The notes under the pieces were generated by a model that did not search any database, was not told where the DNA came from, and saw nothing but the letters and a program-made list of their open reading frames with translations. The position numbers were made by a program, and so were the translations under genes. Positions 10,668-53,761 of a DNA stretch of 64,000 nt are shown piece by piece. Position 1 is the first letter of the stretch. Each line of letters opens with the position of its first letter. The stretch is from Eledone cirrhosa (Eukaryota), in NCBI GenBank assembly GCA_964016885.1, contig OZ024742.1, forward strand, positions 121,830,001 to 121,894,000. The letters are read 5' to 3'.

Positions 10668-10956
10668 AACATACATATATATATATACATATATATATAT
10701 AAACATACATACACATACACATAAATAGACAAACACACACACACACACGGTCTTCAAAATGCTTTTAATTAAGCATAAAGTGTATTGCAAAATACATTAT
10801 ATATACATCCATATATATATTTCTATTTCAGAGCTCCAATTCTAATTTTTAATTTCTGCCTGACCAACAACCGCTCTGCATACTCAGCTACTGATTATTT
10901 ACTAGACTTCTATAAGAATATAACATCAATGATCTCAGCAGACAGGTGGGGTAGTT

Positions 10957-11000
10957 GGCCTTGATAAGCTTCAACCAAAGCGAAACAAGTCTTGTCGGCT
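10957..11000 (+). ncRNA. Type-I hammerhead ribozyme (U3:A8 core)
   Basis: ggcc-TTGATAA-gctt caacca aagc-GAAA-caagtcttgt-C-ggct. Stem I is extended by gatctcagcagacagg/cctgtttgctgagatc (10931-11023). Confidence 0.8.
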
Positions 11001-11272
11001 TATCTCCCCTGTTTGCTGAGATCAAAGTGAGTGAATTCGTCACTACTTTAAAACAATAGCTTACGGTCTTCAAAATGCTTTTAATTAAGCATAAAGTGTA
11101 TTGCAAAATACATTATATATACATCCATATATATATTGCTATTTCAGAGTTCCAATTCTAATTTTTAATTTCTGCCTGACCAACAACCGCTCTGCATAAT
11201 CAGCTCCTGATTATTTACTAGACTTCTATAAGAATATAACATCAATGATCTCAGCAGACAGGTGGGGTAGTT

Positions 11273-11316
11273 GGCCTTGATAAGCTTCAACCAAAGCGAA
11301 ACAAGTCTTGTCGGCT
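11273..11316 (+). ncRNA. Type-I hammerhead ribozyme (second tandem copy)
   Basis: Identical core to 10957-11000, 316 bp downstream. Confidence 0.8.
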
Positions 11317-11440
11317 TATCTCCCCTGCTTGCTGAGATCAAAGTGAGTGAATTTGTCACTACTTTAAAACAATAGCTTACGGTCTTCAAAATGCTTTTAA
11401 TTAAGCATAAAGTGTATTCCAAAATACATTATATATACAT

Positions 11441-11513
<73 letters not shown>

Positions 11514-15551: not shown

Positions 15552-16212
15552 ATATATATATATAAATGGAATAGAATGAAACGAAATTTCATTTCTCACT
15601 CTAAGTACGGCACTTACTTAAATGTAAGTATGTATGTATGTATACGTACATACATATATGTATACAGACGTACAGTAGTATGTATATATATACATACATG
15701 CACATATATATATATATATGCACGTATCGGTTTACCGAACATTTATTATAATGCTCGGTTTGTTTGTTTGAAAACAAACAAACAGCCCGAATTACGCCGT
15801 ACAGTGTTTAGGCAACCACGTTACCTTTTTGTTCAACATTGACACAGGAACGATATACTAGTTTCAAGGTTATTAGCTATCGTCAGCATCGTATACCTTC
15901 CTGCCAGATAGTTGAACGTCTGAAAGTATATACTTTCCTTATGCATATTAACGGCTGAGCAGCCTAATTTGCATATCGAGTGAGTTCAGTCGTCCGGGCA
16001 CACCGCAAACGATAAATGGAATAGAATGAAACGAAATTTCATTTCTCACTCTTAGTACGGCACTTACTTAAATGTAAGTATGCATGTATACGTATATACA
16101 TATATGTATACAGACGTACAGTAGCATGTATATATATACATACATGCACACATATATATATACACGTATCGGTTTACCGAACATTTATTATAATGCTCGG
16201 TTTGTTTGTTTG
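15552..16212 (-). mobile_element. Tandem ~460-bp hammerhead-containing repeat (retrozyme-like), about 1.4 units
   Basis: ataaatggaatagaatgaaacgaaatttc recurs at 15552 and 16012. There is an HHR on the minus strand and (TA)n flanks. Confidence 0.75.
15850..15892 (-). ncRNA. Type-I hammerhead ribozyme motif
   Basis: acgatg-CTGACGA-tagctaataacctt-GAAA-ctagt-A-tatcgt, with palindromic stem III ACTAGT and a weak stem II. Confidence 0.7.
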
Positions 16213-16356
16213 TAATATATATATACCTGGAGTTGCGACCGATAGATAGTATTAGCAACTGGAAAGACCAACGGAAACATTGTTTCTTCGGTCCGATTTG
16301 ACGAAAGTCGATCGCTCCTTTTATATGTTTGTCTGTTTGAAATACAACAATATTTG

Positions 16357-27288: not shown

Positions 27289-28770
27289 ATGGAGCTACGT
27301 AAACTGGATTATTCCCTAAAAAGTAATCCCAACCATTCCAACGAGACTTATTCGAAGTACTTGCTACAAGAAGAAAAGGACGTCGTTAGGCTTTTTTCGA
27401 CGGGAAAATCACAGGATCAGTCGACAATTTCAAAATTAAATCTAGAGACTATCTCTCCAAGGTCAATGACTACGATCCTTTCGAGACAGCTCTCCTTGAA
27501 TTAGTCATTAGCTTCTTTCGTAAATCCTCCAATCCTTTCAAAAACAAGATTAGAAAAGTTATACAACATTTTAGGTTCTCTAAAACGACTTTCGGCTTAT
27601 CTGACAATAACTTATATGAGCTGGACGAAACTATATACAATCACTTAACACACAAGATCATACTTCTAAATATAAATTAGTAGACCCTTCACCTTACAAC
27701 ATCAATAATGAAGACAGGCACATAGCCATCGCATGTAGATAAGAAATTAGAATGTTTAACATTAACATAATTTGACTTTACTAATAAGCTTATATGCAGG
27801 CTCACCAAATGGGACAGAGTTAGAACTAGTTAGCAAGATAATACTTAGAAATATAATTAAGACCACAAGGAAACATTCCAGCCCAACTCAGTGGGAAATA
27901 GTGATACAGTAATTAAATGAATGGCTTAGCTCCCTGACCAACACTAACATAGATAGATTCACTCAGTTCGACATCACATATTTTTACCTCTCGATATTTA
28001 AAATCCTGTTAGATAAGTCCTTAGATTTTTCCACTAGATACACTAGCGTTTATGACATAGACAGGCAAGTGATATCCCACTGCAGGAAAACTCTCCTTTT
28101 CAGCAACGAGGAAAATTGTGTGAAAAAAATCAAATACAACAGATCTATTCGTTGCAATGATGTGGTCATTCGATATTGCTGATGTGGGGTTACGTATTTT
28201 GGATACACTACGGGCCAAATAACCAAACTTCCACAGGAGCCTTTACCAAGATGATCGTCAAGCCATACCGAGCTATAAAAGCGGCCATGATCTTGAACAT
28301 TAAAGAAAAACTTAACCATATTTAACGAATTACGAATTAAAATCCCCGAGACATCAACCCGACTAGGATCTACCCACTAGTTGTCGCCTTAGATCTTCTG
28401 CCACCCTCCTACGGCTTTTAAAAACATTATAAAAACATGAACAAAAGAATCATGAACGTTTGAGGCTTAATATAACGGAAACAATTGTCGGCTGGCCGTT
28501 TCGTATGATGGTTAGCACGATGAAACGGTATACTGCAGGTGTGAATGTGGGTCCTACGGGTAGCGGGGTACAAATTGATCTCCGTCTTCATGGTTTATAT
28601 GTCCAATTTAGACTATTTTTCACAGTAAAAATCGTTAAAGCTTCTAACTTACCAATTTTAACCCTCTCATTACTCAACGGTTCTAGCAATAGATCGTTTA
28701 TATAAATACACACACACACAAACACACAAACACACACATTTTAGTCTTCACATTTAATATTATTACTATA
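27289..28770 (+). mobile_element. Heavily decayed Penelope-like element
   Basis: N-terminus LDYSLKSNPNHSNETYSKYLL is like 15160-15342. RT remnants include FTQFDI and GKTLLF. The end ttttagtcttca..attattactata is shared with 36911-36940. Confidence 0.6.
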
Positions 28771-28818
28771 TATATAGTATATATACATATACACATATAT
28801 ATATATAGTATATATACA

Positions 28819-28859
<41 letters not shown>

Positions 28860-28922
28860 TATATACATTCATATATATATATAGTATATATACATTCATA
28901 TATATATATATATATATATATA

Positions 28923-29038
<116 letters not shown>

Positions 29039-29185
29039 TATATATATATATATATATATATGTGAAGATAGACATAGAATATTCGAAAATATTCTGTATG
29101 TTTATAATAACATTTTGAAGACCTAATCGCTATAGAATAGAATACGTCACGTATTACAATTAGATTCTCGATAAAAGCAAGGGAA

Positions 29186-29228
29186 GTAATCTACGCGTTT
29201 CATTCTTATTAGAAATCTTCAGGATTAC
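29186..29228 (-). ncRNA. Type-I hammerhead ribozyme
   Basis: Reverse complement of 29381-29423. Confidence 0.8.
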
Positions 29229-29380
29229 ATATCCAGTGCTTTTATCGAGAATGACACAGCTAGAGACTTATAGAATACTTAGCTGTGTACAGGAACTGGT
29301 TTGAAAGAGCGGTTGCCGGTCCGGCAGAAATTAGAAATTGGATTAAATGCTCTGAAATGCTCGATAAAAGCACTGGATAT

Positions 29381-29423
29381 GTAATCCTGAAGATTTCTAA
29401 TAAGAATGAAACGCGTAGATTAC
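29381..29423 (+). ncRNA. Type-I hammerhead ribozyme, canonical core
   Basis: gtaatc-CTGAAGA-tttct aata agaat-GAAA-cgcgt-A-gattac, with stem III palindrome ACGCGT and extended stem ctcgataaaagca/tgcttttatcgag. Confidence 0.85.
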
Positions 29424-29690
29424 TTCCCTTGCTTTTATCGAGAATCTAATTGTAATACGTGACGTATTCTATTCTATAGCGATTAGGTCTTCAAAATGTT
29501 TATTATAAACATACAGAATATTTTCGAATATTCTATGTCTATCTTCACATATATATCGCTATTTCAGAGCATTTAATCCAATTTCTAATTTCTGCCGGAC
29601 CGGCAACCGCTCTTTCAAACCAGTTCCTGTACACAGCTAAGTATTCTATAAGTCTCTAGCTGTGTCATTCTCGATAAAAGCACTGGATAT

Positions 29691-29733
29691 GTAATCCTGA
29701 AGATTTCTAATAAGAATGAAACGCGTAGATTAC
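29691..29733 (+). ncRNA. Type-I hammerhead ribozyme (second tandem copy)
   Basis: Identical to 29381-29423, 310 bp downstream. Confidence 0.85.
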
Positions 29734-29893
29734 TTCCCTTGCTTTTATCGAGAATCTAATTGTAATACGTGACGTATTCTATTCTATAGCGATTAGGTCT
29801 TCAAAATGTTTATTATAAACATACAGAATATTTTCGAATATTCTATGTCTATCTTCACATATATATCGCTATTTCAGAGCATTTAATCCAATT

Positions 29894-30051
<158 letters not shown>

Positions 30052-30067
30052 TATATATATATAAATA

Positions 30068-30133
<66 letters not shown>

Positions 30134-30179
30134 TATATATAGATATAGATATATATATATAAATATATATATAGATATA

Positions 30180-30278
<99 letters not shown>

Positions 30279-30279
30279 T

Positions 30280-30449
30280 ATAAAGAATCGAGACACCGAC
30301 GACTGAGCTCTTACCGTTTCAACAACTCTTTCCAGACTTGAACTAGCTACTGAAACGTCAAGAGCTCCCGACACTTTATAACATTGTATTAGCCCAAGTA
30401 TCAAGTACTCTGTTGAGTAATGGTCTAACCAGTTTCAAACTGAATACAT

Positions 30450-30499: not shown

Positions 30500-30503
<4 letters not shown>

Positions 30504-30825
30504 GGAAAAAAATGAAACAAAATTTCATTTCCCACTCCCAGTACGGCTGTTACTTAAATATAAGTATGTACACGTACATACATATATGTATACAGACGCA
30601 CAGTAGTATGTATATATATATACATACATGCACACATATATATATATGTACGTATGGATTCACCGAACATTTATTGTAATGCTCGGTGTGTTTGTAAGCA
30701 TTATAATAAATGTTCGGTGAATCCATACGTACATATATATATGTGTGCATGTATGTATATATATATATACATACTACTGTGCGTCTGTATACATATATGT
30801 ATGTACGTGTACATACTTATATATA
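30500..30825. repeat. Fold-back fragment of the 460-bp family
   Basis: Homologous to 15560-15760. IR arms lie at ~30560-30683 and 30698-30822. Confidence 0.75.
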
Positions 30826-30831
30826 TATATA

Positions 30832-34630
<3,799 letters not shown>

Positions 34631-39282: not shown

Positions 39283-39335
<53 letters not shown>

Positions 39336-39639
39336 TTAGCTTCAACATAGCTGTATACATATATGTATGTGAATTTCGTAAATCTAAATGTATACGGTAT
39401 GTTTAATAATTAAACTTGTTGAAAGCCTAGCTATGCATATTGAAAGTATGTATGTTCTCTTGGTTTTATAATTTCACAAATGTTTACCAATAGAGAGAGA
39501 GAGTCTATTTCTAACATATATATAAGATTATCTCATTGGAATTTACCCGGCATCAACTAGGTAGATATGTATGCATGTCTGTATGCATGTGGGTGCAGGT
39601 ATGGATGTTATTGTATGTGTGGAGGTGTATATTTTGAGT

Positions 39640-41620: not shown

Positions 41621-42807
41621 TTTTCTCTTTCTCTTAATTTCGAGTATATTTTTTTTGACCGGCCACCTTCCTGGTGGCAAGGTTGTAAAAGAAAAGAAAT
41701 TGTCATCCCTTGAATCGCAAGAATGTTTTGCATATTTTGAAGGTGCCAGCTATCGCAGCCATTTGTAGACTATGAATTAGGGAGCTGGGCTTTTTGTCCG
41801 CAAATCCAAGTTCGGTCATACTTTGGTCCAAGCGGGTTGGTATATAACCCGTAGCACCAATAATGATGGGTATGAAGCTAAAGGTGTATCTTGGATACTG
41901 GATTTGTAAGCTCCTCATCAATGGTCCGTAGATGTCCTCCTTCTCCTGTATTTTTCTGACAACGTTTACATCAAGTGGGCAACTGATCTCCACAACAGAA
42001 CACGTGTTCAATGTGTGGTCCCAAACTACAATATCAGGCCGGTTGTGCTTTAATTTGGTGGCAGTTTTTATTTTCAGGTTCCACCAGTATTCCTTAGTGC
42101 CATCTGTCTCAATATATTCTTCCTCGTTTGTTGTTAATTTTGTTTTCCGAAGTGCGTTCCAGATAGTTCTAGCTATCCCATCGTGTCTCATGGGGAGGTA
42201 GTAGCGAGATGACATTCTTTCGCAGCTGGCAACAATGTGGCTTACATCCTCGATCTTTGTTTTACATAGCCTACATTTATTGTCAGCTGCTGGCCCTCCT
42301 CTTTTGTGCAGCAGATATTTGGTAGGGAGTTCTTGTTCCTGTATTGCATAGAGATATCCCTCAAGGTGTGATGTCATAAACTTGTCGGAACTCCATGCCA
42401 GGCTTTTTGAGTGGTTTATCCCCTCTATGGTCTGTGTTTTACGCCTCAAGTATCCATGCACAACTTTCTCTGTAAATTGGTCAATTTTTTTTTCTTGTTT
42501 GAACATTGAATAGGATCTTCCGATTTCTCTGGGTGAGAGATTTATATCAGGCTTTATTCCATATCTCTCCTCCAGATCAGTCGCTATTCTAATGATATTT
42601 CTTTTTTCATGCTCATAAACCTGAGCAAGATGGTCGCCAACCTTTTTCCTCTGTTGAAGGTGTTGCTTCAGTGTTACTATCCGGGTCTCATATGTTGTTA
42701 ATATTGATTTTAGACCCCGGCCACCTTCCTTGCGTGAGAAGTATAGCCTATCCACATCACCATTGATGTTAAAGTTCCCAGTAACACTGAGAAGTTTTCG
42801 AGTTCTA
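41621..42807 (-). mobile_element. 5'-truncated copy of the young R4/Dong element
   Basis: Near-identical to 42870-44057 apart from a few SNPs, and bounded on both sides by (TATG)n. Confidence 0.93.
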
Positions 42808-42869
42808 TGTATGTATGTATGTATGTATGTATGTATGTATGTATGTATGTATGTATGTATGTATGTATG

Positions 42870-45800
42870 TTTTCTCTTTCTCTTAATTTCGAGTATATTT
42901 TTTTGACCGGCCACCTTCCTGGTGGCAAGGTTGTAAAAGAAAAGAAATTGTCATCCCTTGAATTGCAAGAATGTTTTGCATATTTTGAAGGTGCCAGCTA
43001 TCGCAGCCATTTGTAGACTATGAATTAGGGAGCTGCGCTTTTTGTCCGCAAATCCAAGTTCGGTCATACTTTGGTCCAAGCGGGTTGGTATATAGCCCGT
43101 AGCACCAATAATGATGGGTATGAAGCTAAAGGTGTATCTTGGATACTGGATTTGTAAGCTCCTCATCAATGGTCCGTAGATGTCCTCCTTCTCCTGTATT
43201 TTTCTGACAACGTTTACATCAAGTGGGCAGCTGATCTCCACAACAGAGCACGTTTTCAATGTGTGGTCCCAAACTACAATATCAGGCCGGTTGTGCTTTA
43301 ATTTGGTGGCAGTTTTTATTTTCAGGTTCCACCAGTATTCCTTAGTGCCATCTGTCTCAATATATTCTTCCTCGTTTGTTGTTAATTTTGTTTTCCGAAG
43401 TGCGTTCCAGATAGTTCTAGCTATCCCATCGTGTCTCATGGGGAGGTAGTAGCGAGATGACATTCTTTCGCAGCTGGCAACAATGTGGCTTACATCCTCG
43501 ATCTTTGTTTTACATAGCCTACATTTATTGTCAGCTGCTGGCCCTCCTCTTTTGTGCAGCAGATATTTGGTAGGGAGTTCTTGTTCCTGTATTGCATAGA
43601 GATATCCCTCAAGGTGTGATGTCATAAACTTGTCGGAACTCCATGCCAGGCTTTTTGAGTGGTTTATCCCCTCTATGGTCTGTGTTTTACGCCTCAAGTA
43701 TCCATGCACAACTTTCTCTGTAAATTGGTCAATTTTTTTTTCTTGTTTGAACATTGAATAGGATCTTCCGATTTCTCTGGGTGAGAGATTTATATCAGGC
43801 TTTATTCCATATCTCTCCTCCAGATCAGTCGCTATTCTAATGATATTTCTTTTTTCATGCTCATAAACCTGAGCAAGATGGTCGCCAACCTTTTTCCTCT
43901 GTTGAAGGTGTTGCTTCAGTGTTACTATCCGGGTCTCATATGTTGTTAATATTGATTTTAGACCCCGGCCACCTTCCTTGCGTGAGAAGTATAGCCTATC
44001 CACATCACCATTGATGTTAAAGTTCCCAGTAACACTGAGAAGTTTTCGAGTTCTAACATCCATCTCACTTAGTTCTTGCAATGACCAGTTCAGTAGGCCA
44101 AATGTTGGCGTTAGAATTGGCACAGCATAGGTATTGTGGGCAATGTATTTGTTGTATGCTGACAGTTCTGATGACCATATTTTTTTTACTCTTCTGAGGT
44201 ATTCAGTTCTGGTTCTCTCCTTATTTATGGGTCCATCATATCTGACATTCTCATCCTGTCCAAGATATCTGTAGTTGTCACCTGACTGCAGAGGTTGTAT
44301 TGTCAGGCCGTTCATCTCTAGATTTCTAGAGGAGGGCACAGCTCTTCCACGTTTTACTGCCAAATATGCACACTTGGACTCACCAAATTTCATTTTGATG
44401 TCGGTTGAAAATTGTGTAATGAGGTCCAATTGTTTCTTGATGTCATTGATATTTGGCCCATACAACTTCAGGTCATCAACAAAGAAAAGATGGGAGATAC
44501 TTCTGGGCCCACTTCTTTGTCCACCTTGTTTCCTGAGTAGGTAAGATAGTGGATTCAGTGAGAGAACGAAGAGTAGTACTGACAAGCTATCACCCTGAAA
44601 GATGCCCTTCTGGTAATGTATCCCATCAGTCTTAACCTGCTCCTTCTCACCTCTAAGGATCAAATTGGTGTACCAGTTCTTGGTCAGGCGTTCAACAGCA
44701 GCTACTAATGGTTGTGGGACTTTAGCTAACTGTAAAGCCTTAATAATCCACCCATGAGGTACACTATCAAATGCTTTTTGATAGTCCAGCCACACGACAG
44801 TCATGTTTCTGCGATTCTTTGTTGTTTTTTCCTGAATCATTTTGTTAGTTAGTAGGTGATCTATGCAACCCCACACCTCCCTCTTTCCACCAGCTTGCTC
44901 AGGTGTTATGATGTTGTTGGTAGCACAGTGATCCTGTAAGAACAGGTTAAGGCACCCAGTATATAATTTATACATGATGTTTTGGCAGGCAATTGGGCGG
45001 TAATTTTTAGCAAGGGTGGTTTGGCTATTTTTGGGAATGAGGAGAGTAGTGGCAGTTGATAACCATCTGGGCAGTTCTTGTGTGCCCTTAATGGTTTCTG
45101 TAAACAGCCGTATGAGATCTTGCCGATAGAAAGTGAAATTCTTCAACCAGTATCCTGTAATGAGGTCTGGGCCTGGCGATTTCCTATTCGACATTTTCTG
45201 TAGAGCTGTTTCCAGTATTGACCCATCTATGTCATATTGTTTTGTCTGGACATGTTGGCAGTAGTCCTGTTCCAGTTGTTTTAGCCAATTAGCTTGTCTG
45301 TTGAATCCGTCATCCGTTTCTCATACAGATCTCCAGTAGTTCTCAACCTGTTCTTTTGAAGGGGTGTCGTTTACAGGGATTGAACTTTTGCCACCGAAGC
45401 TGCGATAAACTGATTTAGGATCTCTGGCAAACAATCTATTTAGCACTTGTCGTTTATGGGCTGTTGACTTATATTTTAGTCTTTCTGTTGTAGCTGTGAG
45501 TTGTTGTTTCAACTGGTGTAATTTGGAGTTCAAAGTTTTAAATTTGGTATCTCCAAATCGTCTCTCTAACTTTTTCTTTAGGTCTTCCTGGTGTCGTGTG
45601 AAGTTTCTCTCTATGTTGCATTTCATAACGACTGCGATGTGTGAGATACTTCGTCTCAGGGACAAAATTTTGGTTTTTAAATTTCGCATCCACGCTGGTT
45701 CAGGCTTTCTGTTTGTATCTTGATTGCGTGGTTTTAGATGTGTGTTATATGATAGCAATGTGACAGCTGAAACATATAACAAAACATTGAGCGTTTCAAA

Positions 45801-46668
45801 TGTCGTTTCTACACCTTTAGATCGTATAGCCTTCAGATAATTGCCAGCTATTTCGTTCACCGCTTCCAATTCCAATTTAGTGGGTTCTTTACTGACTCTA
45901 GTGTTGTATGGTCTGTCACTCACATTAAGGCTGTGTATCTCTTGAAACATATCGTTCCATATCACTTGTAGGGTGCCCACAAGTTTTTGGTGCTCTGTTT
46001 GTTCAGTAGAGTCATGAATTGCAGCCTCGTTGTTGATGTGGTGACAATTACTACTAGAGTCAGCTGACCTTTCTCGCTGTTCTTCAGTGGAAGTGGGATG
46101 GATTTCAGCAAAATTGTTGGTGAGCTGTTCACTGTTAGATTTAGCTGGCCATTCTCTTTGTCTGTCAGTGGAGGTGGGGTGGTTGTCTACAAGGGCTGTA
46201 TTTGTAGTATCACTCGATTCCGTTAGATGTATCAATTTACATCTAATGATACGTTTTGCCTGTTCATTTAGATGCTTTGGAGAAAAGTCTAATTCTGGGT
46301 GTTTGGAGTTCCATAAAGTTTTTAGCCTTTGCATAAAACCGAACTTTTGGGGTTCAGATTGTTTGTATGCTTCATATAATTCTTTGTTAAGCTCGTAGCT
46401 CCACTGTATACAACGGTTGTAATTGCGATTTGGTCGAAGGAGACTTGTACTTTTTGCCATGATGAGTTCGTCTATTCACTAATATTTTGTATTTATTTTT
46501 TTAAAATAGTCGATGATCTTCTTTAAAAGTTACGACAAAGTTCTGTCAGAATCAAATTTAAAGTTATTCACAGCTTGGGTAATATTTCTTTTCAGTTAGT
46601 TTTAAATTCTACAACTGTGTTTTAAACGTTGTTCTTGAATCGTTTGAATCGAGAACAAAAAGAACCGT
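42870..46668 (-). mobile_element. Full-length R4/Dong-clade non-LTR retrotransposon in a (CATA)n microsatellite
   Basis: Single reading frame with RT and REL endonuclease, and (TATG)n on both sides. The 3' UTR has the hairpin gccacc-aggaa-ggtggc. Confidence 0.93.
42951..46460 (-). pseudogene. R4/Dong ORF (1170 codons): RT, CCHC knuckle and restriction-like endonuclease, with one in-frame TGA at 45321-45323
   Basis: The 379-aa and 747-aa ORFs are in one frame, joined by YWRSV*ETDDGFNRQANWLK. Motifs include KSPGPD, NYRPI, WLDYQKAFDSV, GIFQGDSLS, FFVDDLK, CRLC..EDVSHIVASC, RHD, RPDIV and EISCP..EKEDIY. Confidence 0.9.
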
Positions 46669-51373: not shown

Positions 51374-52779
51374 GTATGTATGTATGTATGTATGTACGTA
51401 TGTATGTATGTATGTATGTATGTATGTATGTTTGTGTGTATCTGTGCGTGAGTGTGTGTGTGTATGTTTGCATGTGTCTGTGAATGTCTATGTGTTTATG
51501 TATGTGTATATAAATTGAGAGTGATATAGATAGATAGACAGTCAGACACATAAATAAATAGATAGATAGATATATAGATAGATGGCTAGATATATTGATG
51601 GATATGTTGGTAGAAAAATATATTTGTCAACATACGAACATCAAACACATGTACAGGCAGACGCAGACAGATAAAGACTTTTAATTTCGCATGCATCCTG
51701 TCTCACAAGCAAAGATAATTATATGGTCTGAAGGTGCGACAAATATAAGATGTAAGTATAGGAGGCACCTAGGTTTCGGTGTAGTGGTAGACTATGTGAG
51801 GATGTCAATGGGGGTGTTACTCTAAGCAAGTTAAATCATGTTAGCTGTGGTGATAATTATAGATTTCTATAGGTGAAAGATGATCAGTAATCAGAAGATG
51901 ATTAATCACATGTATAGTGTTATAAGGCACCTTAAGAAAGGAGTGCTGTTAATAAGAATGGTTAGTTTTAGTGGACCATTAGATAATAGAATAAGTGAGA
52001 GAGTTAATGGAGGTGTAGTGAAACGAAGTATGTACTGGCTAGCTGAATGGAAATTTATAAGTGAAAGGCCATTGTAGTTATAGAGTAATAAGAATGTTTT
52101 CTTGCATGTTGTTTGATGTTCATACCGAAGAAAATCTCAAGTTGGAAATAGTGTCTAATGACAGATGTAAGAGAAACGATAGTGACCGAAATGCTAGCCC
52201 GGTATAAGATGATTTGCTCATTGTATTTTGCGACCAACTCCTCGTTATTTTCACGTCAGACTTCTGTAACAAATTTGGCGCCACGGTTGGACTTGTGTAA
52301 ATTAATCTCTTAAGAGTATATAAAAAATGAATTGCAGTAGAACTGGAGTCATGGAATGCCAAATTTGTGGTACTTTTATTAAGACCGTGCACATTACAAC
52401 TCTGCTCACAGATTGAGGTCTCTCAACACAGATTTGTAATTTATGTAGTCTTAATAAAATTACTACTAAAAAGAATATATATATATGTATGCATATATAT
52501 GTATATATATACATATGTACATATATACATATGTACACATATATATATATATATAAACAATTAAGTTAAAAATGTACATCTACATATGCATACTGAAATA
52601 CTAGTATGCATATGAATACACACACGTATACATATGTAGATGTAACAAGTCTTTCACTGGTTACTTTACTGTGAGTAACCCAGCTATTCTGTATGTAAAC
52701 ACACAGACAAACCGGTTTTAGAGTCATACTGGTTTTCGAGGAAACACCTTTCCTCTATTCTCCAGAAAGCCAGAAAAGG

Positions 52780-52824
52780 AACATTGAACTAGTTTCGTTG
52801 TTGTTACAACTCATCAGCAATATT
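52780..52824 (-). ncRNA. Type-I hammerhead ribozyme
   Basis: Reverse complement of 53372-53416. Confidence 0.85.
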
Positions 52825-53371
52825 TACCTATCTACCGGCCTTTCTGGAGAATCGTAAAAGCACATATCGTTATATGCTTTTTCTATGAAAATTAGTAGTG
52901 GGCAGACCAATTTGCATAGAGTGTGAGTACGCACCGGTTCAGCGGAGACGATAAAAACAAATAACGAAACGAAATTAAATTTCGTTTCGTTTGTAACTCA
53001 CTTTTGTATGACTGACGCTTAAACAATTAAGTTAAAAATGTACATCTACATATGCATACTGAAATACTAGTATGCATATGAATACACACACGTATACATA
53101 TGTAGATGTAACAAGTCTTTCACTGGTTACTTTACTGTGAGTAACCCAGCTATTCTGTATGTAAACACACAGACATCACGTCAGTCATACAAAAGTGAGT
53201 TACAAACGAAACGAAATTTAATTTCGTTTCGTTATTTGTTTTTATCGTCTCCGCTGAACCGGTGCGTACTCACACTCTATGCAAATTGGTCTGCCCACTA
53301 CTAATTTTCATAGAAAAAGCATATAACGATATGTGCTTTTACGATTCTCCAGAAAGGCCGGTAGATAGGTA

Positions 53372-53416
53372 AATATTGCTGATGAGTTGTAACAACAACG
53401 AAACTAGTTCAATGTT
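53372..53416 (+). ncRNA. Type-I hammerhead ribozyme, canonical core
   Basis: aatattg-CTGATGA-gttgt aaca acaac-GAAA-ctagt-T-caatgtt, with extended stem attctccagaaag/ctttctggagaat. Confidence 0.85.
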
Positions 53417-53704
53417 CCTTTTCTGGCTTTCTGGAGAATAGAGGAAAGGTGTTTCCTCGAAAACCAGTATGACTCTAAAAACCGGTTTGTCTGTGTGTTT
53501 ACATACAGAATAGCTGGGTTACTCACAGTAAAGTAACCAGTGAAAGACTTGTTACATCTACATATGTATACGTGTGTGTATTCATATGCATACTAGTATT
53601 TCAGTATGCATATGTAGATGTACATTTTTAATTTAATTGTTTAAGCGTCAGTCATACAAAAGTGAGTTACAAACGTAACGAAATTTAATTTCGTTTCGTT
53701 ATTT

Positions 53705-53761
<57 letters not shown>

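Follow-up and report, generated by a model that had tools for sequence, protein, structure and literature searches.

The closest described relatives of the locus reported here are the metazoan non-LTR retrozymes, which Cervera and de la Pena 2020 (PMC7229834) describe as tandem repeats of a 150-450 bp unit with low GC content, one type I hammerhead per unit, no ORF and thousands of copies. The discussion of that paper proposes, without a test, that Penelope-type elements (PLEs) probably move these retrozymes and that circles serve as the template, and Li, Clavereau and Pollet 2026 (10.64898/2026.07.22.740005) regard retrozymes as non-autonomous PLE derivatives on the basis of co-occurrence and pLTR similarity in vertebrates. 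The mover enzyme of animal retrozymes and the circle as its template thus both stand as proposals in the literature (PMC7229834; 10.64898/2026.07.22.740005). For PLEs themselves, an inverted arm and a 30-40 bp tail at one end are hallmarks of insertion (PMC8557442, PMC3846280), and with the anole PLE in vitro the tail corresponds to the distance between two internal start sites, both target strands being cut and extended (PMC11167929).

Within a 64,000-nucleotide stretch of the Eledone cirrhosa genome (contig OZ024742.1; hereafter the window), we analyzed a 310-bp repeat that we read, with a probability of roughly 0.78, as a young single insertion of a hammerhead repeat copied in trans by PLE enzymes, probably from a one-unit circular RNA. 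The insertion at 29054-29894 is composed of an inverted arm, one extra base and a direct arm of the unit, and (TA)n is found on either side (28767-29061 and 29894-30282; unstranded target tracts outside the arms, 28767-29053 and 29895-30282), in agreement with the initial annotation. The inverted arm (29054-29358, minus strand) holds about 1.0 unit, with its 3' end on the left at site 1 (unit position 132-139), its 5' end at unit position 144 and one base lost near 29109. Beyond the unstranded head-to-head joint at 29359, the direct arm (29360-29894, plus strand) holds about 1.7 units, starting at unit position 253 and ending 3' at site 2 (unit position 165-167), with an exact 310-bp period and 223 of 223 bases identical between the two copies compared. 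Its first type I hammerhead, with an extended stem I, occupies 29360-29442 on the plus strand (core 29387-29417) and the second plus-strand core lies at 29697-29727. The previously predicted cuts after 29417 and 29727 are confirmed in position by these cores and delimit a full plus-strand unit of 310 nt without an ORF at 29418-29727. Three hammerheads had been reported at a 310-bp period; three cores are indeed present, but only two share that period, the third (29192-29222, minus strand) lying on the inverted arm. Between the two direct cores, the plus-strand segment 29486-29612, common to sister families, contains two hairpins, AUAUAUAU at site 1, a small tail hairpin and site 2, and may be the start signal for reverse transcription.

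The unit (310 bp, 34% GC) has a longest stop-free frame of 59 codons when read as a circle and a longest Met-started frame of only 26 codons, bearing out its description as non-coding. Folded as a circle it reaches -67.5 kcal/mol against -46.9 +/- 4.4 in 100 shuffles (z -4.7). All four hairpins named by the initial annotation were recovered, but pairing involves 57% of the bases of the circular MFE, so the monomer is not built almost wholly of them. The predicted ribozyme has an open stem I (type I) of 6 pairs that is extended, beyond an internal loop, by 13 more, a stem II whose first pair is U.U, and a stem III of 1-2 pairs capped by the palindrome ACGCGU, so that 'canonical' was too strong a word and a weak type is the better description. 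Pair probabilities in the circle are 0.78-1.0 for stem I, about 0.16 for stem II and 0.0 for stem III, and the stem III palindrome self-pairs as a dimer at -9.5 kcal/mol. Rfam scans returned no hits at the gathering score and four at E<=10, with no ribozyme among them; the ribozyme call therefore rests on the core motif and helices. An intact core is present in 422 of 434 full units, and the unit carries a ribozyme in one polarity only. Within this family (family A), the common variants affect core position 7 or loop II, or else stem I, where pairing is preserved through G.U pairs. The core is retained, though with altered helices, in sister families that are about 70% alike, that of family B having U3-A8 in place of C3-G8, and this pattern suggests selection on the ribozyme. 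The short tandem unit, core and helices, and lack of an ORF support assignment to the non-coding type I hammerhead repeats of the non-LTR retrozyme kind, with cleavage as a prediction from sequence.

Family A is abundant, as the exact ribozyme-core pattern matched 13,916 times in the 3.0-Gb genome and the pattern common to sister families 21,012 times, each with no match in the control. A genome similarity search with the unit, covering 40 of 390 candidate places, yielded 293 matches, with 99-100% identity among the 150 matches listed; loci occur on at least 7 contigs, and arrays reach 27 units per arm. We mapped 80 clusters, 39 near best matches (including the window and one met by chance) and 41 in order along one contig; 30 stretches of the latter set were picked for a site 1 end, leaving their other end as a free test. 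These represent about 80 of well over 1,000 loci. From them we compared 434 full units, 258 not picked by similarity and 176 picked by similarity to the window.

The size, self-pairing and ribozyme of the unit would also suit a viroid-like RNA that replicates from RNA to RNA and is only occasionally copied into DNA, and rare locus variants carry a weak A>G excess (7 sites versus 1 T>C, p 0.02) that fits editing of an RNA template. Unit-private variants lack this excess (8 versus 16 T>C), however, and the ribozyme occurs on one strand only, the fold is branched rather than rod-like and diversity is very low, which together leave this explanation highly improbable. Three sequencing runs labelled as other organisms each yielded one 340-base contig of the unit plus coding PLE pieces, in similar proportion; we discarded them as expression or host-range evidence because the similar PLE proportion fits trace genomic DNA.

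The arrangement of the arms bears on how the repeat was inserted. Sixty of 79 complete clusters are two-armed and head to head, and in 57 of the 80 mapped the two divergent arms have one 3' end at site 1 (unit position 123-147, mostly 130-139) and the other at site 2 (158-175, mostly 165), a rule that the window copy obeys. No two-armed cluster among the 80 had both ends at the same site; the rest comprise 3 two-armed clusters with one end elsewhere, 19 in one orientation and 1 cut by a stretch edge. The split between sites in the 57 loci is far from independent choice (p ~1e-17), and in all 57 the tail of about 35 nt from site 1 to site 2 is on one arm only. Genome-wide, 657 forward-strand matches run from site 1 into (TA)n and 145 matches, for one sequence variant, from site 2; reverse-strand end counts are inflated by overlapping matches. 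Site 1 has 8 bases able to pair with the (TA)n target, but one family A locus within (TTA)n (L040) uses the same two sites, indicating that they are not set by (TA)n pairing alone. Of the 62 central joints, 43 show an overlap of a few bases between the arms, 6 are blunt and 13 contain extra bases, although some of the 13 are mapping artefacts; microhomology at most joints is 1-6 bases.

The same layout extends beyond family A. Among 21 stretches of sister family B, all 12 loci with both ends at a site have site 1/site 2 ends, the other 9 being one-armed or having one end elsewhere. Family B is represented in the window at 10747-11452 (316-bp unit, 73% alike over 145 bases, 1,006 candidate places). 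An intact PLE family of the same genome provides a coding control: among 20 stretches, both arm ends were seen in 14 loci, and in all 14 a single arm bears the tail. With two divergent arms, a TA target and a one-sided tail of about 35 nt, the Penelope-type integration suggested earlier is upheld. Since the array ends match those left by Penelope-type elements, PLE enzymes likely copy the repeat, and mobilization of the 310-bp unit by PLE machinery acting in trans is very probable.

The coding control is an abundant young family (L100-L119) with many intact frames of 784 aa; its insertions are two-armed, and it also forms tandem arrays with a repeat length of about 3,870 bp. Its frames carry RT, a CxxxxCxxC linker and GIY-YIG, the domains being confirmed, and by the linker described in PMC8557442 the family would be Neptune-like. 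It resembles the unit in target, youth and layout; there is no detectable sequence in common, and a scan of L100-L119 found no hammerhead. The nearby PLE at 30849-33084, which the initial annotation had taken as the driver, is not supported in that role: its frame is broken by an in-frame stop and by a frame change, it was inserted separately, and it has no sequence in common with the unit. Profile searches of about 1.3 Mb of the 3.0 Gb for a partner PLE matched only non-coding hammerhead families, and neither by eye nor by profile did the 3' regions of other PLE fragments (n=49) match the unit. Several leads were discarded. A fragment 79% alike beside a PLE endonuclease in L067 is the neighbouring sister-family arm rather than that PLE's end, and leads at 39330-39440 and 15707-15776 of the window led to further non-coding hammerhead families. 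At L067:9005-9140 the sister-family arm lies head to head against a coding PLE that is truncated at its 5' end, and this may be a chimeric insertion from two RNAs, although both outer ends are of the tail type.

These searches bear on whether the arrays could derive from a coding PLE, as its solo pLTRs or stumps, and have since been amplified as satellite DNA. Frog retrozymes resemble pLTRs (10.64898/2026.07.22.740005) and later duplication is visible in long arms, as that account would have it. Against it, unit follows unit in every arm and never an ORF, two-armed loci contain only the unit, and each locus has its own joint together with fixed outer ends, which is not expected of spread at the DNA level. 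None of 19 free 5' ends lies on a sense PLE frame or has a common flank (two have antisense PLE fragments), in line with the earlier view that the unit is not a pLTR attached to a coding PLE. We consider an origin as solo pLTRs or stumps improbable.

If PLE enzymes copied the repeat, the form of the RNA template can be narrowed from the arms themselves. A cut linear monomer primed at these sites yields at most 139 or 170 bases, while in 52 of the 57 loci each arm is longer than this and extends across a cut site, the median arm length being about 800 bases, so the template spanned the cut site and is a circle or an uncut multimer. A genome-wide pattern search found no arm ends at the ribozyme cut site, and across 562 ribozyme junctions no base is gained or lost at the cut bond, with 22 having one extra base two positions downstream. 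In L170 and L179 every unit of both arms is a 311-bp variant, having one extra base two positions past the cut site; L170 additionally has a doubled inversion.

Sequence differences among units suggest how much template was sampled at each insertion. In the 258 units not picked by similarity, units differ by 0.39 bases in the same arm, 0.23 in the opposite arm and 3.3 between loci, so that opposite arms resemble each other as closely as units of a single arm do, and about ten times more closely than different loci, which speaks for a circle. In the 176 picked by similarity to the window, the within-arm difference (1.31) is near that between loci (1.72). The majority sequences of the two arms disagree in 8 of 34 loci. 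Of 20 rare locus-wide variants, 19 are in both arms, the locus of the remaining one being one-armed, and their presence in all units of both arms points to a one-unit bottleneck, although homogeneous source arrays among unsampled loci could also be their source. In at least 10 long arrays, minor variants reappear every 2 to 10 units along an arm (every 10 units in L035, 4 in L059, 5 in L047 and 7 in L189; irregularly in others). Such periodic variants are not obtainable from one-unit circles; they are mostly confined to one arm and absent from the opposite one. They may reflect later block duplication, and a mixed multimer template could also yield them.

It is accordingly possible, if rather doubtful, that PLE machinery copied an uncut linear multimer transcribed from an existing array, with the ribozyme trimming some transcripts and circles being a by-product or absent. 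The weak predicted helices and the periodic variants within arms are compatible with this, as are in vitro data on the anole PLE, which mainly used uncut RNA as its substrate and for which mutants of the ribozyme were still inserted (PMC11167929). Of the predicted frog retrozyme dimers, only 1 of 9 cut in vitro (10.64898/2026.07.22.740005), which weighs against our main reading. Tandem arrays occur in the coding PLE of this genome too, where a scan detected no hammerhead, so multi-unit arms are possible without a ribozyme circle. Partly cut multimers would, however, pile 5' ends at the cut site, and the 5' ends observed are spread out instead: of 140, 2 lie no more than 2 bases from that site (2.3 expected). 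No central joint recurs in another locus among the 62, two mapping artefacts aside, as sampled in about 80 of well over 1,000 loci, and the locus-wide variants in both arms and the lack of periodic variants in the opposite arm also argue against a multimer. On this evidence we lean toward a circular RNA as the template, the 310-nt unit being the candidate circle.

A circular template suggests the following route. The arrays would be transcribed, the weak hammerheads would cut, likely as stem III dimers, and the unit would be ligated to a circle, by analogy with coral, mussel and axolotl retrozymes (PMC7229834). A GIY-YIG endonuclease would cut both strands of the AT-rich target, and each 3' end would prime reverse transcription inside the RNA, one at site 1 and the other at site 2, which are separated by about 35 nt. 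Of this, the pattern of ends is observed here and the enzymatic step is modelled on the anole PLE (PMC11167929). Both cDNAs would pass the ribozyme cut site and stop at scattered points, as seen in the arms, before being joined head to head, in most cases through the short microhomology found at the joints. Some arms would later lengthen by block duplication, as the periodic variants suggest.

The segment around both sites is common to families A, B, D and the L141 type and has a common predicted fold, in which both partners of 7 of the 22 pairs differ in one or more of 6 sequences; with few independent lineages this support for conservation is suggestive only. In an extended form of the route, for which we see the chances as evenly balanced, the PLE enzyme would prime from both ends of one DNA break at the two fixed sites on a single ribozyme-made 310-nt circle and copy round it, recruited without sequence likeness by an RNA fold conserved across at least four families of different age. 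If true, these loci would be a genomic record of the retrotransposition route proposed for animal retrozymes.

The window holds further repeats of this kind. Another hammerhead family lies at 15707-16215 (core at 15886, minus strand), and a short two-armed stump of it sits in TA at 30500-30830, with a similar hairpin-hairpin-ATAT arrangement before its end. An inverted repeat at 52709-53712 carries two hammerheads (53379 plus, 52817 minus) with palindromic stem III and represents a further family. The stump at 39330-39440 belongs to an older family (L210-L239; 1,620 candidates) with copies about 90% identical to one another, and the end region of this family shows distant homology to the end region of the 310-bp unit. 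At 34531, 23578, 23785 and 10358 there are further hammerhead-like cores, which belong to other repeat families, and a non-LTR retrotransposon with a 789-aa RT frame lies at 42951-46475 on the minus strand, with a duplicated 3' part at 41703-42950.

Comparison with described systems places the family within a known kind. It shares with the retrozymes of PMC7229834 all the features listed at the outset and, as in non-LTR retrozymes generally, its unit has no LTR, PBS or PPT and a GC content under 50%. The U.U pair at the base of helix II recalls axolotl HHR_Amex2 and the weak palindromic helix III recalls HHR_Amex1, both of which cut better as dimers (PMC7229834); in contrast to the ribozymes presented there, the two weak features are united here in one. 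Two-armed insertions with two fixed ends are likewise absent from the portions of PMC7229834 considered, and target duplication is unreadable in (TA)n here. With Li, Clavereau and Pollet (10.64898/2026.07.22.740005) we share the conclusion that these are non-autonomous elements using PLE enzymes, although the evidence here is an integration footprint with no parent pLTR found in our searches, whereas local tandem amplification is discussed there.

Among EN+ PLEs, Poseidon of Anolis (PMC11167929), Adineta Pen2a (PMC3846280) and Neptune/Naiad (PMC8557442) share with the present repeat an inverted arm truncated at its 5' end, a tail of 30-40 bp on only one end, a target that is AT-rich or (TA)n and two internal start sites downstream of a hammerhead; unlike these elements, the repeat lacks an RT/endonuclease frame and has a 310-nt unit repeated in both arms. 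The Poseidon start site is described as not homologous to the cut DNA (PMC11167929), whereas site 1 can pair over its 8 bases. Non-coding PLE passengers of Chlamys such as MRC1 also form multicopy head-to-tail insertions (PMC8557442), yet these resemble their autonomous family at the 3' end and are described without a canonical hammerhead, while here a hammerhead is present and the searches found no partner similarity. A literature search of listings, outside subscription journals, repeat databases and supplements, returned no paper on a two-armed two-site retrozyme footprint or on this family. Being young and abundant, with a nearly exceptionless PLE footprint and a coding control in the same genome, the family offers defined start sites and a short RNA for an in vitro PLE assay of the type in PMC11167929, and the genomic evidence makes the proposed copying route directly testable. 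It is thus a new family of a known kind, the non-LTR retrozymes, rather than a new class of element, and one that provides unusually clear genomic evidence for mobilization by PLEs.
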